This document shows, piece by piece, positions 1,730 through 45,811 of a DNA stretch of 64,000 nt. The notes under the pieces are model-generated. The model was given only the letters and a program-made list of their open reading frames with translations. It was not told the DNA's origin and made no database searches. This DNA comes from an uncultured Verrucomicrobiota bacterium. GTDB taxonomy: Bacteria; Verrucomicrobiota; Kiritimatiellia; CAIVKH01. The first letter of the stretch is position 1. Every line of letters starts with the position of its first letter. The DNA is taken from NCBI GenBank assembly GCA_937872895.1, contig CALMUP010000005.1, forward strand, positions 1 through 64,000. Reading direction: 5' to 3'. A program made the translations under genes and the position numbers.

Positions 1730-4700
1730 TCAGCGATAGGCAGACATGCTGATCTGTTGCTGCATCATCTGCACAAGCTCCCGGATCACCTCGTGATACG
1801 CGATCATCGCGCCCGGAGTCCGGATCGAATCGTTCGATGAGATGCGGAACGAGGGCCGGTACCGACCCCTTCGCCGGGCATCGCCTTCCATCTTTTTCTC
1901 CTCCTCGAGACGTTGCGCGCTGGCCGCCAAGGGATACACCTGCTTAGGCGGTTCAGGGACCTTCGCCCGGGTCGCCTCGACGACCCGCCACAAGGCGCGC
2001 AGGTCGTGCACCTGATCGATGTCCGGTCGCCCGTGGCGGGACAACGGATCAAGCCGTAACGCCGTGAAGACCACGGCATCCCGATCCTCAACCGGAACCT
2101 GCATGTACTCCCCCAGTTCGCCCATCTTCTTCCACGCATTCAGGTAATCCGGCGCACGTTCCGTCGCCTGCCGGAACGAATCCAGCGCCTCCGCATAACG
2201 GCCCTGTTCCATCCGCAGGTATCCAAGCAGGTAATGGACCTGCGGCTTTTCCGGGTTCTGCTCGACCAGGGACGTGAAGACGCGCTCGGCGATTCCCTGC
2301 GCCCGCGGACTGTCAAACGCGCCTTCGCACCCGAAACAGTGACTTTCCACCTTCCCGAAACTGTCCGGCATCAACTCATAGGCTCGCTGGTAATGACGCT
2401 CCGCCTCGTCCAGGCGACCGAGCTCCTCCAGTTGAATCGCCATGCGCGACTGGATGCAATACGCATCGGCAAAATACCCCAACGCTTCCTCGTAGAGAGC
2501 CACCCCGCGCGCGATCAAGCCGGCGTCGTAAAACGCATCCGCCTCCTCCGACAACCGGATGGCCCGGATCACCCCGGCCAGGAATGCCGCCTGCTCACCG
2601 TCACCCTGCGCCTCGGCCATGGCACCCAACTCCTCGTACACGCGCATCCGGGTACCCCGACCCTGTTCACCATCCGACGGATCCACCGCAACGGCCTGTT
2701 GCGCCACGGCCTTGGCCGCATCCAGTTGACCGTCGAGCCGGAGCAGATGGGCTTTCCAGATCAACGGCCGTTCCTCGTATGGATCAAGCGCATACAGGCG
2801 GTCGAGGTGCTCCACTGCAGCCAGGCCCTTGATGGCCACGAACCGCTCATAGGCCGGATCATACCCGCCCCTGCGCAGCAGCTCCGCCTCGAGAATCCGT
2901 ACCGCCTCGGCTTCCCTTCCGGCGGCACGCAGGGCATCCGCAGCGATCACGGAAATCGACGGAAACGATTCGCTCTTTCCCCCGAAGCCATACCCGAAAT
3001 ACGACCCGGCGAGGTCGGCCAGATCGGCCACGCCCCACCACGGGTTGCGGTCGAGCAACACCACCACATCATCAAACCGCCCGGCGGCATGGTACAATCC
3101 CGCCAGCGTCGCCATATCCTGCATCATCCCGTAACTGGACATGAAGCCATAGTCTGAATCCCGGGCGGCCCGATGTTCCTTCAGGCTTTGCTGAAGCAGG
3201 GCCTCGGCCTCGGGTCCGCGTCCGGTCGCCACCAGCAGGTGGACCAGCGATGACACGTCGCTGCTCCCGAATCCGCGTTCCCGACCCGGCGCAAACAGCA
3301 AGGCCTGCGCGGCCGCCAGCCCTTCCTCGACCCAGGATTCCTGCTGCAACAGCCGACCCAGGCGGGCCAAGGTCAACCCGAGCTCAACCGCCGTTTCCTT
3401 CTGGTTGTTTACCGCATCGGCCAGACGCGAACGCAACAGCGCCACGCCTTCATCGACCTGATCAACGGCAAGGCGGGCATCCTGCAACAACGCATCGAGT
3501 TCCTCGCGCTGCTCCTGCGACACCTGCTCGCTCGCGGCGTACCGATCGACAAACGCCACCATCGCATCACCCTTCCCGAGTTTGACCGACACGTGCATGT
3601 AGTACTTCCAGAAGGGCCGGCCGGGATCCTCCTCCAGCACACGCTCCAGCCACTGCTGGACCTGCCCGGTGTAGCCGTATTGCTCCAATTGCCGGAACAC
3701 ATCATCAGACAGGACCTGCTCGCGCATCGTCTCGGGGATGGCCGCAGCGACGCGGTGCGCATCCTCGATCCGGTCGGCCACGATCAACCCGAGCAGGTAA
3801 TATCCCTGCGCCGTGCGAAATGCCCGCTGCCGCGGTGAACGCTCCAGATCGCGCGCGACCGAGCCGCGGACCGACCGGCTCAACGAACCCATGACCTGCC
3901 GGAACATCGTGTTCATGGTGACGAGTTCCTTGCCCGCCGGATCCTTGGCCACGTCGCCCTCCGGGAACGCCTGCTGCAACGCCTCGAACAGGTTCAGGCC
4001 ATCCAGGGAATGGGCCATCGCCCACTGCGGTGACCGCATCTGCGGCACCAGTTCCACGGCGAGTTCACGGGCCAATTGTTTGGTCGCCGATCCGTGGCGG
4101 ATGGTTACCGTCGTGTTCGGAAGCACCAGGGCCTGCCGCAGCAAACGCTCCGCCTCCTCAGCCCCCAGCAGGGTCACCAGGTCGGGAAGCTGGAGTTCCT
4201 CCTCGTCCTCGTCGCCCACCTGACGCGCCGCGATGTCCTGCTCGAGAAAAGCCACCACCATCGACGCATCACCGGCAATCAACGCCTTTGCCTTCATGAC
4301 CTTGACGACGTGATCGACCAGGTAGGAACCAAACCCCTCCTTGCCTTCATCCCCAAGGCGCTTGATCAGCGACTCCGCCTCGGTCATGAAAGCACCGGTC
4401 TGCCCGGTCAGCGTATGGACCAGCATCCGCAACAGGGATTCCAGGGACCGCCGGGCCGGGTCCTTCGGTTCGGGACGGGCATCGACCAATCCCGCCAACG
4501 CATCCCACGCTTCGGGCGACGGCAAGGCCAGGATCAGCCGGGCCATGGACGGCGCCTGATCCTCGGACGATGCGAACGCGACCAGATCCTGGCGTCGAAG
4601 GGAAAGCAACCGGTCATACAAGTCCAGCCAGGCGCGGGCCGCTTCATCCGCAGCAAGCGCGGAAGCGCCATCCTCCAACGCCTTCAGGTCATTCAGCCAG

Positions 4701-43157: not shown

Positions 43158-44642
43158 TCAGGGGCGCTTCATTGCCGTGGCCAGTCGGCCGAGGGTCGCG
43201 ACGGCGTGATCGATGCGCTCGGACCACGGGTGCCCGCAGTTCAAGCGCAGGCAATTCCGGAATCCCTGGCGGGCGGAAAAGATCGGGCCGGGCGCGATGC
43301 TGATGCCGGCCGCGATGGCCTCGTCGAACAGGCGCATCGCATCGGCCGGCTCCGGCATCTCCACCCATAATACGAAACCGCCTTGTGGTCGGCTGATCCG
43401 TGTTCCTTCCGGAAAGTACCGGACCACGGCTTCACTCATGCGCTGGACCTGCTGGGCAAAAGTGCGACGCAAGCCGCGAATCATATGATCATACCCGCCG
43501 GATTGCAGGAACTCGGCGATGGTCCACTGCAGCGGGGTCGGGGTGGAAAGCGACAGCGCACTTTTACACCGGACGACTTCGTCGTGGTAACGTCCGGCCG
43601 AGACCCACCCCACGCGGTAACCGGGAGCCAGGGTCTTTGCAAAGGATGAGCAGAACATTACCAGTCCCTTGGTGTCGAACGCCTTCAGCGCGGGCGGACG
43701 GTGGATGTCGAAGGCGAGGTCGCCGTAGATATCGTCCTCGATCACCGGGGTATCATAGCGCACCGCCAACTCCACCAACCCCCGCTTGTGGTCCTCGGGC
43801 ATACAGCTACCCAGCGGATTGTTGAAGTTCGCCATGACCAGCACGGCCTTGACCTTCCGCTTGCGCAGGGCGGCCTCCAGGCCGTTGAGATCAATCCCGG
43901 TGCTCGGATCGGTGGGAATTTCCAGGGCTTTCATCTTGAGACGCTGGATCATGCGCAGGAACCCGTAGTAGGTGGGCGACTCCACGGCGATGGTGTCCCC
44001 CGGGCCAGCCACCGACTGGAGACACATGGCGACCGCCTCGGTGCAGCCGCAGGTGGTCAGGATCTCCTCGCTGGTCAGGCGGCACCCGAGATCCAAGGCC
44101 CGGCGGGCCAACTGGCGGCGCAGTTCAAGCAGGCCGGGTGGCAGGTCATAATCATTGATACGCGCACCGAGGCGGCGACCCAACGAGGCTCCAAGGCGGG
44201 ACAAGCGGGCCTGCGGGAAGAGATCGGATTGCGCGCAGGCCGCGCCGAGCGGGATGATCGACGGGTCGCGGGCGGCGTCATACACCTTCAGCACCAGGTC
44301 ATCGACACTCACCGTGCTCGCCGCGCGCGGGGGCCGAATCACCCTCGGCTCGGGAGGCAGCTCCAAGGTGCGTGGCTTGACATAGAATCCCGATTGCGGA
44401 CGCGCCTCGATCAGCCCGCGGTTCTCCAGCAACAGGAAGGCCTGAAGCACCGTGGAGATGCTCACCTTCTGATGCCGGCTCAAGCGACGAACCGACGGCA
44501 CGCGATCGCCCGGCTTCAAACTACCCTCTTCAATCAGCCGACGGATCGAGTCCGCCACCTGCTCGTACAACAACGTTTTTGTTTTTGCCGTGGAGATCAT
44601 TTGTTCCTGACGCATGGAGAATGTAGCGCAATCACGCCGCAA
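43158..44642 (-). CDS. MocR/GabR-family transcriptional regulator (GntR HTH + PLP aminotransferase-like domain)
   Basis: N-terminal 'LYEQVADSIRRLIEEGSLKPGDRVPSVRRLSRHQKVSISTVLQAFLLLENRGLIE' GntR HTH, then a fold-type-I aminotransferase domain. Start may be an internal Met (44615 or 44600). Confidence 0.8.
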   Translation of the reverse strand: MRRDCATFSMRQEQMISTAKTKTLLYEQVADSIRRLIEEGSLKPGDRVPSVRRLSRHQKVSISTVLQAFLLLENRGLIEARPQSGFYVKPRTLELPPEPRVIRPPRAASTVSVDDLVLKVYDAARDPSIIPLGAACAQSDLFPQARLSRLGASLGRRLGARINDYDLPPGLLELRRQLARRALDLGCRLTSEEILTTCGCTEAVAMCLQSVAGPGDTIAVESPTYYGFLRMIQRLKMKALEIPTDPSTGIDLNGLEAALRKRKVKAVLVMANFNNPLGSCMPEDHKRGLVELAVRYDTPVIEDDIYGDLAFDIHRPPALKAFDTKGLVMFCSSFAKTLAPGYRVGWVSAGRYHDEVVRCKSALSLSTPTPLQWTIAEFLQSGGYDHMIRGLRRTFAQQVQRMSEAVVRYFPEGTRISRPQGGFVLWVEMPEPADAMRLFDEAIAAGISIAPGPIFSARQGFRNCLRLNCGHPWSERIDHAVATLGRLATAMKRP

Positions 44643-44764
44643 CGGGCAGATACAGCATGCCCCACCCCGGCACAGTACAGTTTAAGGACAACTGTAACTG
44701 TGTACATTACAATTTATTCACGCTATGACTGTACCTGCTTGCGGACGGGTGAAACGATGGGGGC

Positions 44765-45106
44765 ATGAAAACGGGCGTGGCATGGATCCGTGATGGATGG
44801 CGGTGGATGGTTGCGTGGGCCCCGGGTAGCCGGGAGGGACTTCGCACCGCAGCGGTAGTGCAGCACCTCGACGCAGGCGACGTGCTATCCGTAAGGCGAT
44901 CTGAACGGGGCGTAGTGCGGGACGGGCGCCTGTGGCTCACCGATGGCGGTTGCCGCGGGGACCTCATCCTCGAATGCGGATCGGTTCTGCACGGATCGTG
45001 GCCCGGACGCACGGTCATCCAGGCCCTTGAGCCCACCGACATCGAGTGGTTCACATCATGCCGGAGAAGGCCGCAGCGACACGCACCGGCTCGGTTCGGT
45101 TCATGA
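44765..45106 (+). CDS. Possible small beta-barrel (DUF2917-like) protein, divergent from the MocR regulator
   Basis: '..HLDAGDVLSVRRSERGVVRDGRLWLTDGG..GDLIL..G' resembles DUF2917. High-GC ORF, low confidence. Confidence 0.3.
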   Translation: MKTGVAWIRDGWRWMVAWAPGSREGLRTAAVVQHLDAGDVLSVRRSERGVVRDGRLWLTDGGCRGDLILECGSVLHGSWPGRTVIQALEPTDIEWFTSCRRRPQRHAPARFGS

Positions 45107-45147
45107 TCAAGAACGCGTTGAGGTCCCTTCACGACGCAGAGCCGCCT

Positions 45148-45274
45148 GGGATCGATCATGGGAATGTCGCAACGGGGGCGGCCCGCCTACGCAAGGCTAC
45201 GGCGTGGCAGCCTTCGCTCTCCGCTGCGCATCAGGGTTGGCTGGCATGCCAAGCCGTAGCTCGGAGCGCAGCGG
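45148..45274. repeat. 127-bp direct repeat, copy 1 (solo)
   Basis: 3 mismatches to 45541-45667; contains an ATG ATC GAT CCC (MIDP) start on the minus strand, but the downstream ORF is degenerate. Confidence 0.85.
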
Positions 45275-45303
45275 CAGGAGATGTGGGTGTGTTCGGCCCG
45301 CCT

Positions 45304-45552
45304 TCAGAAGTGCTTGCGGGCAAATGCTCGTCCAGAACCTGTTTTCAGATAACGCTCGAAATCCCTGGCCTTATCCCCCGAATTGAATCGGATGACGGTT
45401 TCAACGCGCCATGGGCGGCAACTGGACGTATGGGGAACTCCGCCTTCGTTATGCTTCTTCAAGCGTGCGACCAAGTCCTTGGTGCAGCCGGTGTAATGTC
45501 GTTCCGGGTATTGCTCGCTGACGAGGATGTACACGTATACGGGATCGATCAT
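45304..45552 (-). CDS. GIY-YIG-family nuclease (small, 82 aa)
   Basis: 'VYVYILVSEQYPERHYTGCTKDLVARLKKHNEG' GIY-YIG signature. Its start codon and first residues lie inside repeat copy 2. Confidence 0.7.
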   Translation of the reverse strand: MIDPVYVYILVSEQYPERHYTGCTKDLVARLKKHNEGGVPHTSSCRPWRVETVIRFNSGDKARDFERYLKTGSGRAFARKHF

Positions 45553-45667
45553 GGGAATGTCACAACGGGGGCGGCCCGCCTACGCAAGGCTACGGCGTGG
45601 CAGCCTTCGCTCACCGCTGCGCATCGGGGTTGGCTGGCATGCCAAGCCGTAGCTCGGAGCGCAGCGG
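45541..45667. repeat. 127-bp direct repeat, copy 2 (carries the GIY-YIG start/5' region)
   Basis: Near-identical to 45148-45274; ends 11 nt before the tRNA-Ala 3' end; internally palindromic (ccgctgcgc...gcgcagcgg). Confidence 0.85.
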
Positions 45668-45678
45668 AGAGCGAAGGC

Positions 45679-45754
45679 TGGTGGAGCGGAAGGGAGTTGA
45701 ACCCTCGACCTTCTCATTGCGAACGAGACGCTCTCCCAACTGAGCTACCGCCCC
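45679..45754 (-). tRNA. tRNA-Ala (anticodon CGC), CCA encoded
   Basis: Minus-strand GGGGCGGTAGCTCAGTTGGGAGAGCGTCTCGTTCGCAATGAGAAGGTCGAGGGTTCAACTCCCTTCCGCTCCACCA; folds as a cloverleaf with G3:U70 and anticodon loop TTCGCAA. Confidence 0.85.
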
Positions 45755-45811
45755 AACCAAAGTGCCCGAAAGCTAGCAAAGTGGGTTTCGAAGTGCAAGC
45801 GGTTATCGGGA

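Follow-up and report, generated by a model that had tools for sequence, protein, structure and literature searches.

A structured repeat at the CCA end of tRNA and tmRNA genes with an optional Slx1-like GIY-YIG nuclease gene: a candidate two-tier selfish element

Described relatives and the locus in the window

Free-standing GIY-YIG homing genes such as the Seg genes of phage T4, with SegB lying in a tRNA cluster, are small selfish genes beside conserved RNA genes that show presence/absence polymorphism, and PMC13096335 links the GIY-YIG gene segB to local duplication or amplification. Here we describe a locus that resembles them in its setting, and may resemble them in such polymorphism and duplication, in the 64,000-nucleotide (nt) stretch of DNA analysed (the window: positions 1 to 64,000 of contig CALMUP010000005.1, assembly GCA_937872895.1, from an uncultured Verrucomicrobiota bacterium of the Kiritimatiellia). 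In this window, a tRNA-Ala(CGC) gene is followed directly by a conserved multi-helix repeat module, named R here, and by an open reading frame (ORF) for an 82-amino-acid (aa) GIY-YIG nuclease. We read this arrangement, at a probability of roughly 45%, as a two-tier selfish element in which R would be co-transcribed with the tRNA and serve as the 5' untranslated region (UTR) of the nuclease, which in turn would promote recombination among R copies. In contrast to the Seg genes, the element is chromosomal, is absent from the phage collection searched and is coupled to a structured module; moreover, I-TevI, the Seg proteins and I-BmoI have two domains, with a linker and a DNA-binding domain, whereas the protein found here is a single domain of the Slx1/UPF0213 branch.

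Group I introns with homing genes, including the twin-ribozyme introns, are likewise two-tier, in that a structured RNA makes the insertion harmless while the nuclease ORF is optional and expressed from a non-coding RNA precursor. The present system appears comparable in logic to self-splicing introns of this kind, in which the endonuclease gene is optional; R, however, abuts the 3' end of a gene instead of lying inside it, has no group I core and no Rfam match, and requires no splicing. The R2 retrotransposon carries a 5' hepatitis delta virus (HDV)-like ribozyme (PMC3414825), is site-specific and co-transcribed with a highly expressed RNA gene, and has its 5' boundary at the processing site. 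R would share the boundary at a processing site and the co-transcription, and the strand order of the helices in one of its two types (type V, below) is similar, whereas it has neither a reverse transcriptase nor the defining features of HDV-like ribozymes and is found at tRNA genes of bacterial hosts. Repetitive extragenic palindromes (REP) and bacterial interspersed mosaic elements (BIME) with their RAYT proteins, as well as the ends of IS200/IS605 elements, resemble R in being GC-rich imperfect palindromes with a GNAG/GTAG-like tetranucleotide that occur in many copies and in arrays, and also in being inserted beside a short fixed sequence without target duplication. REP sequences are, however, single palindromes of 20-40 nt in any intergenic region, whereas R is about 110-170 nt long, has four helices and long-range pairing, and stands co-oriented at tRNA/tmRNA 3' ends; furthermore, the only ORF linked to R codes for a GIY-YIG nuclease and not for a Y1/HUH protein, TnpA and TnpB being absent.

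In Escherichia coli, the distal repeats of tyrT (rtT RNA/Tpr) form tandem units of about 100-200 nt right after a tRNA gene, share its transcript and include a small ORF. R is similar in forming tandem units directly downstream of tRNA genes and in its small ORF, but it has no sequence or Rfam relation to rtT, the units of which include 19 nt from the 3' end of the tRNA and occur in enterobacteria only, whereas R is found across phyla and at any tRNA. No description of the R family was found in the literature (open-access papers and bioRxiv), including searches with its conserved sequence strings, and the family is apparently both widespread and undescribed. We regard the element as kin to selfish GIY-YIG genes and to non-autonomous structured repeats, with a substantial chance that the module abutting CCA is categorically new.

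We defined the R family by four features: the junction at which CCA is followed directly by GCCUUCGC, a helix A, a hairpin B (CGGCUNGGCANGCC) and a domain C (GYC-M-CGCC GNA ... GNA GGCGGRC). In the window, where R is about 140 nt long, the copy adjoining the tRNA (copy 2) has all four and the distal copy (copy 1) all except the 5' strand of helix A. The parts of the locus are as follows.

45679..45754, minus strand: tRNA-Ala(CGC) gene with encoded CCA, the last base of which is 45679 (ARAGORN; Rfam tRNA, 65.5 bits)
45541..45678, minus strand: full R, copy 2, alpha-type, its first base right after CCA; nuclease 5' UTR and first four codons (first row of alignment A3, all conserved helices fit)
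45671..45680, minus strand: 5' strand of helix A, made of CA (the final two nt of CCA) plus GCCTTCGC, partner 45601-45610 (inverted repeat; 98.7% of cells paired in 31 alpha-type sequences)
45659..45670, minus strand: extension of helix A and 5' strand of helix X (TCTCCGCTGCGC), partner 45611-45622, or its first bases with GAG at 45652-45654 (both pairings covary in the family)
45632..45657, minus strand: X 3' strand, CUA and module B hairpin (CCGAGCTA CGGCTTGGCATGCCAGCC) (B kept in sequences retrieved without using B)
45601..45622, minus strand: helix A 3' strand and extension (GCGCAGCGGTGA GCGAAGGCTG) (pairing in copy 2)
45574..45600, minus strand: module C, with CCACGCC / GGCGGGC as the outer stem (one A bulged), GTA/GTA as the symmetric internal loop and GCCTTGC as the inner hairpin (Y-R covariation; outer-stem cells 100% paired)
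45304..45552, minus strand: minimal GIY-YIG (Slx1/UPF0213-type) nuclease ORF, 82 aa (Pfam PF01541, E 5e-10; family alignment; AlphaFold2 and Foldseek)
45294..45303, minus strand: AGGCGGGCCG right after the TGA stop, an extra copy of the C-stem 3' half and junction mark of the ORF unit (repeat family in the window)
45148..45274, minus strand: R copy 1, 5'-truncated and without GCCTTCGC, with B, A 3' strand, C, leader and ATGATCGATCCC, then host flank (AGGCGGC...) (no ORF remnant after it)
44765..45106, plus strand: convergent host DUF2917 gene, the outer boundary of the insertion and outside the element (Pfam PF11142, E 4e-7; 61% identity to the orthologue at related locus L146)

Much of what had been proposed from the sequence alone was borne out. 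The tRNA-Ala(CGC) gene, both repeats and the ORF all lie on the minus strand, and the direct repeats 3' of the tRNA gene (45148-45274 and 45541-45667) are 127 nt long with exactly three mismatches (45169, 45220 and 45233); a 30-nt core of the repeat has two occurrences in the window, compared with none in 100 shuffles. The element adjoining the tRNA exceeds the 127-nt repeat and extends over 45541-45678. The internal palindrome ccgctgcgc...gcgcagcgg is real and forms part of a helix of 22 base pairs (bp) in copy 2 (45601-45622 with 45659-45680), which runs into the last two bases of the tRNA CCA. The start and first four codons of the ORF, ATGATCGATCCC (MIDP), are inside copy 2, and the same string is present in copy 1. 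The original prediction had taken copy 1 for the decayed second unit of a repeat-plus-ORF tandem, and this part fell: copy 1 is a 5'-truncated repeat joined directly to host sequence, no GIY-YIG remnant beyond the shared 12 nt was found after it (hmmsearch at maximum sensitivity and blastn), and a decayed second ORF is ruled out, the DNA there being the 3' end of the convergent DUF2917 gene.

The half-site AGGCGG(G/C)C has four minus-strand occurrences in the window (45141-45153, 45181-45190, 45294-45309 and 45574-45583), one in each R copy, one directly after the ORF stop and one directly after copy 1, and we take it to mark the junctions of the ORF unit, either as a recombination site or as a plain remnant. 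Copy 1 with its flank (ATGATCGATCCC followed by AGGCGGC) reads as an ORF-less allele of copy 2 with the ORF (ATGATCGATCCC followed by GTATAC...TGA and AGGCGGG). The simplest origin of the R-ORF-R order, given its sharp boundaries, would be that a 393-bp ORF-carrying unit recombined into a resident R.

Spread, fold and transcription of R

Homologues of the ORF elsewhere were located by contig look-up just downstream of tRNA-Cys, tRNA-Leu, tRNA-Ala(GGC) or tmRNA genes, and these loci have a common sequence after CCA (GCCTYCGC ... GCGRAGGCTG YCMCGCCGNAG ... GGCGGRC). A pattern scan for a 21-nt core, using one genome per species, returned at least 119 loci, of which 101 are genuine, with arms and modules outside the search pattern, while 18 resemble chance matches in coding DNA. 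Among the matches listed, the genuine loci belong to Verrucomicrobiota, Kiritimatiellia, Lentisphaerae, Alphaproteobacteria (Bradyrhizobium, Caulobacter, Maricaulis and Sphingomonadales), Acidobacteriota, Planctomycetes and others; 76 of the 101 have a tRNA or tmRNA gene on the same strand directly upstream of R, and at 71 the CCA that closes the gene is followed without a gap by GCCTTCGC (at most one mismatch). In these same matches, the loci with a CCA junction cover 16 amino-acid identities plus tmRNA in many phyla, and no R lies opposite in strand to the adjoining tRNA. Units end in ...GCCA, so the next unit of a tandem array again follows CCA with GCC.

In one 5.7-Mb genome (L012, 2480-3500), the ORF is located within at least four tandem units of about 172 nt of a diverged R variant (CCTTCGCTCG...GCAAGGCTGCCGCGACGAAGCC); no tRNA gene is present within 3 kb, which indicates that the R family can leave the tRNA context, and an IS66 transposase gene is nearby. 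Metagenome contigs often start or stop inside R (L002, L003, L004, L147 and many contigs of less than 1.5 kb). The repeats, in the window as long as the 127-mer of assemblers, break assemblies at tRNA genes, which will bias any census of the family.

The fold of R was derived from two alignments, one with 33 sequences of type V and one with 31 of type alpha (window copy 2 being the first alpha row); most of the aligned sequences come from ORF-less copies. Helix A pairs CA plus GCCUUCGC with GCGAAGGC plus UG, and hence includes the last two bases of CCA; helix X begins at the last bases of the A 5' strand and is free in sequence but constant in complementarity; hairpin B has the form (A)CUA CGGCUNGGCANGCC(AGCC); and in domain C the outer stem, G-Y-C-(A/C bulge)-CGCC / GGCG-G-R-C, is followed by a symmetric internal loop of two non-complementary strands (GNA/GNA) and by an inner hairpin that varies. 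The strand order is A5'-X5'-A3'-C-X3'-B in type V, which is a pseudoknot topology, and A5'-(X hairpin)-B-spacer-A3'-C in type alpha, to which the window copy belongs.

Three helices of R covary. Standard pairs occupy 91.5% of the cells in type V and 94.6% in type alpha, compared with 32-42% and 28-43%, respectively, in slid controls. In helix X, pairs changed on both sides were 7/7 (type V) and 4/4 (type alpha), and the Y-R pair of the C stem is U-A or C-G at a ratio of 18 : 15 in type V and 23 : 8 in type alpha (47 T-A, 28 C-G and one T-G over all copies). Cells of the C outer stem are 100% paired, the inner C hairpin has 65 distinct sequences, most of which fold, and hairpin B is conserved even in sequences retrieved independently of B. 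As the ORF is missing from most of the aligned copies, R is under constraint in its own right. The variable parts follow host composition and are AT-rich in L033 and L027, where A, B and C stay GC-rich and fixed, a pattern that argues for selection over recent transfer. A segment just 5' of A3' is a second covarying partner of the X 5' strand in type alpha (6/6 pairs), and in alignment A3 columns 11-16 can pair with either 46-49 or 109-114, which are mutually exclusive pairings and both conserved; this suggests a conformational switch.

Two further structural ideas were dropped: pairing of the B flank with the C 5' strand showed no covariation (by-eye check), and T-loop mimicry by hairpin B does not fit the loop consensus UNGGCAN. 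An Rfam 15 search of the window region and 12 related loci (E<=1 for the window region and eight loci, gathering thresholds for the other four) gave no match to R, the only confident matches being tRNA, tmRNA, RNase P and rRNA. At L110 (5842-5912, minus strand), a weak match to group II intron D1-D4 (34 bits, below gathering) lies about 350 nt downstream of R and outside it.

R also occurs inside RNA operons: it fills the tRNA-Ile/tRNA-Ala spacer within a 16S-23S operon (L100, 5875-6203, OY969085.1), follows both tRNA-Thr and tRNA-Tyr of a single operon (L088), and is present as two units between tRNA-Val and tRNA-Asp (L085). Being inside the 16S-23S spacer, R must be transcribed as part of the pre-rRNA at L100, and its presence within rRNA and tRNA operons rules out complete termination by R and requires its removal from the precursors. 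In the window, no sigma-70 promoter or intrinsic terminator consensus was found in the interval from the tRNA to the ORF; a -35/-10-like pair is visible by eye upstream of the tRNA, in a stretch that L146 and L147 share at this position. At L130 (about 3180-3215), a terminator-like hairpin with a T run (AAAGCCGTCAAC...GTTGACGGCTTTTTTT) stands in place of the X hairpin, a variant that may end transcription inside R.

The nuclease, its association with R and polymorphism

The ORF matches the GIY-YIG family PF01541 (E 5.2e-10, 39.9 bits against a cut-off of 22.6). Across 32 family members, no variation is seen at Y6, Y8, G22, H34, N35 and E66 and almost none at Y20 and R30, and the family comprises 2,765 cluster representatives at 50% identity (E<=1e-10); the near-invariant catalytic residues and the family size indicate that the ORF is under selection. 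An AlphaFold2 (AF2) model with a predicted local distance difference test (pLDDT) score of 95.4 has the GIY-YIG fold (E5-12, E19-24, H27-35, E48-56, H59-69 and H72-81). All top Foldseek matches are GIY-YIG domains, the best being Slx1 nuclease domains (template-modelling (TM) score 0.72-0.75, 30-36% identity; for Slx1 7cq3, TM 0.75, 32% identity and E 3e-4), followed by UPF0213 BH0048 (E 1.5e-3 by Foldseek, 2.7e-4 by phmmer) and At-HIGLE, with UvrC-type domains far lower (UvrC, E 0.7). On the modelled fold, the nuclease belongs to the Slx1/UPF0213 (URI) branch, nearer to it than to UvrC or I-TevI.

The Slx1-Slx4 nucleases and the UPF0213 proteins (YhbQ/YazA/BH0048) thus share the nuclease fold with the protein described here, which is 28-36% identical to Slx1 chains over 68-82 aligned columns, but it has no RING/PHD finger and no Slx4 partner, possesses its own, subfamily-specific C-terminal motif YLK(S/T)GSGRxFA, and is found in a fixed genomic context. 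The protein is a single domain that stops at residue 82, with neither a zinc finger of the RING/PHD type nor a DNA-binding domain; bacterial stand-alone Slx1/UPF0213 members are likewise domain-only (PMC1564403). No NCBIfam entry matched the ORF, matches in PADLOC and PHROGs were weak and non-significant (none better than E 0.02 in PADLOC), and no curated protein family naming the ORF was found.

The association of R with the ORF was counted from both sides. Starting from R, 88 loci among the matches listed had at least 500 nt downstream, and 14 of them carried a full ORF, 5 a fragment and 69 none; about 16-22% of the R copies listed carry the nuclease ORF. From the protein side, 80 loci were obtained by scanning metagenomes with alignment A1. 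Upstream sequence of at least 250 nt was available for 64 of them: R was upstream in 59 (92%), a tRNA or tmRNA gene stood on the same strand within 500 nt in 47 (73%), and only two had neither R nor a tRNA/tmRNA gene. The ORF starts from a few to about 25 nt past hairpin B (type V) or the C 3' strand (type alpha), and sometimes inside them. Repeat and ORF thus form a recurrent unit 3' of tRNA genes in which the repeat provides the 5' UTR and start codon, as had been proposed for the window. The alternative raised with that proposal, a ubiquitous REP-like repeat unlinked to GIY-YIG genes, held only in part: R is ubiquitous and about 78% of the copies among the matches listed have no ORF, but its placement is specific to the 3' ends of tRNA genes, and it precedes 92% of the subfamily ORFs. 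A second R, often 5'-degenerate, follows the stop codon in 16 of 72 loci, R-ORF-R-ORF arrays are present at L056 and L046, and R lies downstream of tmRNA in both L066 and L078, of which only L078 has the ORF, with differing flanks and downstream genes.

The tRNA-Ala 3' flanks were compared in relatives, as suggested with the original prediction. At L146, where the neighbour gene is 86% identical, tRNA-Ala(CGC) is followed by only 87 nt and then by the same DUF2917 gene; the 87-nt stretch consists of a degenerate A arm and a C 3' remnant, without an ORF. In the 74% relative L147, the contig breaks just past CCA and GCCTTCGC. The number of units at the same locus differs between strains (L005 and L006). 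Neither DNA nor protein searches of the plasmid collection gave a match, nor did a protein search of the phage collection, and scans of viral contigs returned two chance DNA matches inside coding sequence (L025, L026) and one protein match (L230). The latter marks a prophage border (1300-1345), where, as at L009 (1-300), only an attR-like 3' fragment of the tRNA/tmRNA gene is found upstream of R, which suggests that an island or prophage entered the same gene and left R on its distal side.

Around the element in the window, the DUF2917 gene has nine more codons at the 3' end than its L146 counterpart and stops 42 nt from copy 1. A 150-aa ORF opening with the MIDP of copy 1 (44707-45159, minus strand) is antisense to this real gene and spurious. 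Adjoining the DUF2917 gene is a MocR-type regulator (43158-44642, minus strand) with a GntR helix-turn-helix and an aminotransferase domain, which is syntenic in L146 and unrelated to the element.

A possible two-tier selfish element and its alternatives

In the two-tier selfish reading, R at the exact 3' end of a tRNA or tmRNA gene would form the first tier and be transcribed from the tRNA promoter, and its fold (A including the CA of CCA, X, B, and C with the GNA/GNA loop) would let the trailer be cut off the tRNA by host RNases or possibly by R itself, which would make the insertion harmless. The second tier would be the optional Slx1-like GIY-YIG gene of about 80 aa directly downstream, with R as its 5' UTR; hairpin B or the C 3' strand would contain or adjoin the start codon or ribosome-binding region of this gene. 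The nuclease may cut structured or branched DNA formed by R and so stimulate recombination between R copies, which would copy the ORF into ORF-less R sites and yield tandem arrays; in the window, recombination of the ORF-carrying unit into a resident R would account for the order tRNA, R, ORF, 5'-truncated R and host DUF2917 gene. The selfish character assumed in the original prediction now draws on the presence or absence of the ORF at the same tRNA in relatives, on ORF fragments and on strain-variable tandem arrays, and no longer on a tandem decayed unit. The suggestion that the repeat is a homing target has been weakened by the domain-only, Slx1/UPF0213-type nuclease.

Several points weigh against this interpretation. 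Sequence-specific homing is hard to picture for a nuclease without a DNA-binding domain, the arrival of R at the exact CCA position is unexplained by the model, and neither a transposition nor a homing event was observed. With the family absent from the collections of plasmids and phages, no vehicle that could carry it from phylum to phylum was seen, and the state of L146 could be the product of decay and not an empty site. The alignments were anchored by hand with structure in mind, and the invariance of the 21-nt core in the genome set is circular, since the core was the search pattern; in the protein-first set it was recovered independently, only at up to three mismatches. Finally, the wobble asymmetry at declared pairs (28 G-U versus 16 A-C) is a weak sign that the sense strand folds, and R is also compatible with a structure in single-stranded DNA.

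A role of benefit to the host appears unlikely to us. R would then be a 3'-trailer RNA of tRNA and tmRNA, with the small nuclease as its dedicated partner and not a parasite, and could possibly act as a processing or quality-control signal, as a regulatory switch or as a shield of tRNA 3' ends, which are integration hot spots. ORF-less copies keep the covarying helices and the invariant A, B and C even in the AT-rich L033 and L027, which speaks for purifying selection on R; the two alternative covarying partners of the alpha-type X 5' strand are switch-like, islands or prophages in the same tmRNA or tRNA leave R intact (L009, L230), and the family is not found in the plasmid and phage collections. 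R is, however, patchy, accepts any tRNA identity and is located at differing tRNAs in related genomes; the copy number of its arrays is variable, and both degenerate remnants (L146) and fragments of the ORF occur. A housekeeping signal would be expected at orthologous sites and in model organisms, but no Rfam match was found.

We likewise consider it improbable that R is a mobile element acting at the level of DNA, which would fold as single-stranded or cruciform DNA and insert 3' of ...CCA, with the Slx1-like nuclease as a structure-specific 'transposase' and the ORF-less copies mobilised in trans in the manner of MITEs (miniature transposable elements with inverted repeats). The insertion exactly 3' of a short sequence without obvious target duplication would agree with this, as would the unit end ...GCCA, which places the next array unit again after CCA and before GCC, the branched and hairpin DNA cut by the nearest structural relatives of the protein, and the ratio of copies with and without the ORF, which resembles that of autonomous and non-autonomous elements. 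However, we know of no transposase consisting only of a GIY-YIG domain, CCA alone is too short to specify tRNA ends, and the pseudoknot topology, the non-complementary GNA/GNA loop, the start codon within the fold and the 100% co-orientation with tRNA among the matches listed fit RNA better.

Even less probable is a special case of the two-tier reading, in which R would be a new self-cleaving or self-processing RNA, cut between CCA and G to free a tRNA of mature length and the 5' end of the nuclease mRNA, in analogy to the R2 5' ribozyme or to the ribozyme ahead of certain intron-encoded endonuclease genes. The type V order A5'-X5'-A3'-C-X3' matches the P1-P2-P1'-P4-P2' order of HDV-like ribozymes, but there is no room for P3/L3, and the linker at the J4/2 position varies in length and sequence. 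An HDV-like fold was accordingly rejected: only 5-11 nt separate X 5' from A 3', which leaves no P3, the linker before X 3' is a variable 5-35 nt, and no match to the HDV clan of Rfam was obtained. The exact junction, the single-stranded and helix sequence invariant across phyla, and the tolerance of R inside rRNA and tRNA operons would all suit a self-cleaving RNA, whereas the alpha type, including the window copy, has no pseudoknot, the site between CA and G is inside a helix, and no Rfam ribozyme family was matched at E<=1.

A type III toxin-antitoxin-like pair, in which structured RNA repeats would neutralise a downstream nuclease toxin, is very improbable: tandem structured units do stand directly upstream of the nuclease gene at L006, L012 and L229 and the fold is pseudoknotted, but most ORFs have a single unit, 69 of the 88 R loci among the matches listed (about 78%) have no ORF, the units are 3-5 times as long as known antitoxin repeats, the fold is GIY-YIG and not ToxN/AbiEii-like, PADLOC gave no significant match, and the specificity for tRNA ends would be left unexplained. 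A purely local duplication is poorly supported.

If the two-tier selfish reading is correct, a large family of tiny Slx1-like nucleases would gain a defined genomic partner and a testable role, and a widespread, strongly covarying element missing from Rfam would be placed at one of the best-conserved positions of any genome, the nucleotide that follows CCA in tRNA and tmRNA genes, rRNA operons included. This would bear on the processing of tRNA 3' trailers and on the selfish use of strong RNA-gene promoters, as well as on the frequent breaks of metagenome assemblies at tRNA genes, and would provide a compact natural system (a module of about 110-170 nt and a protein of 80 aa) for structure-specific nucleic-acid recognition. 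Possible, if somewhat doubtful, is that R represents an unrecognised class of functional nucleic acid at CCA ends, either a self-processing RNA or the structured DNA end of a new mobile element with only an 80-aa Slx1-like nuclease; in that case, this would be the first biological role assigned to the large bacterial UPF0213-like clade.

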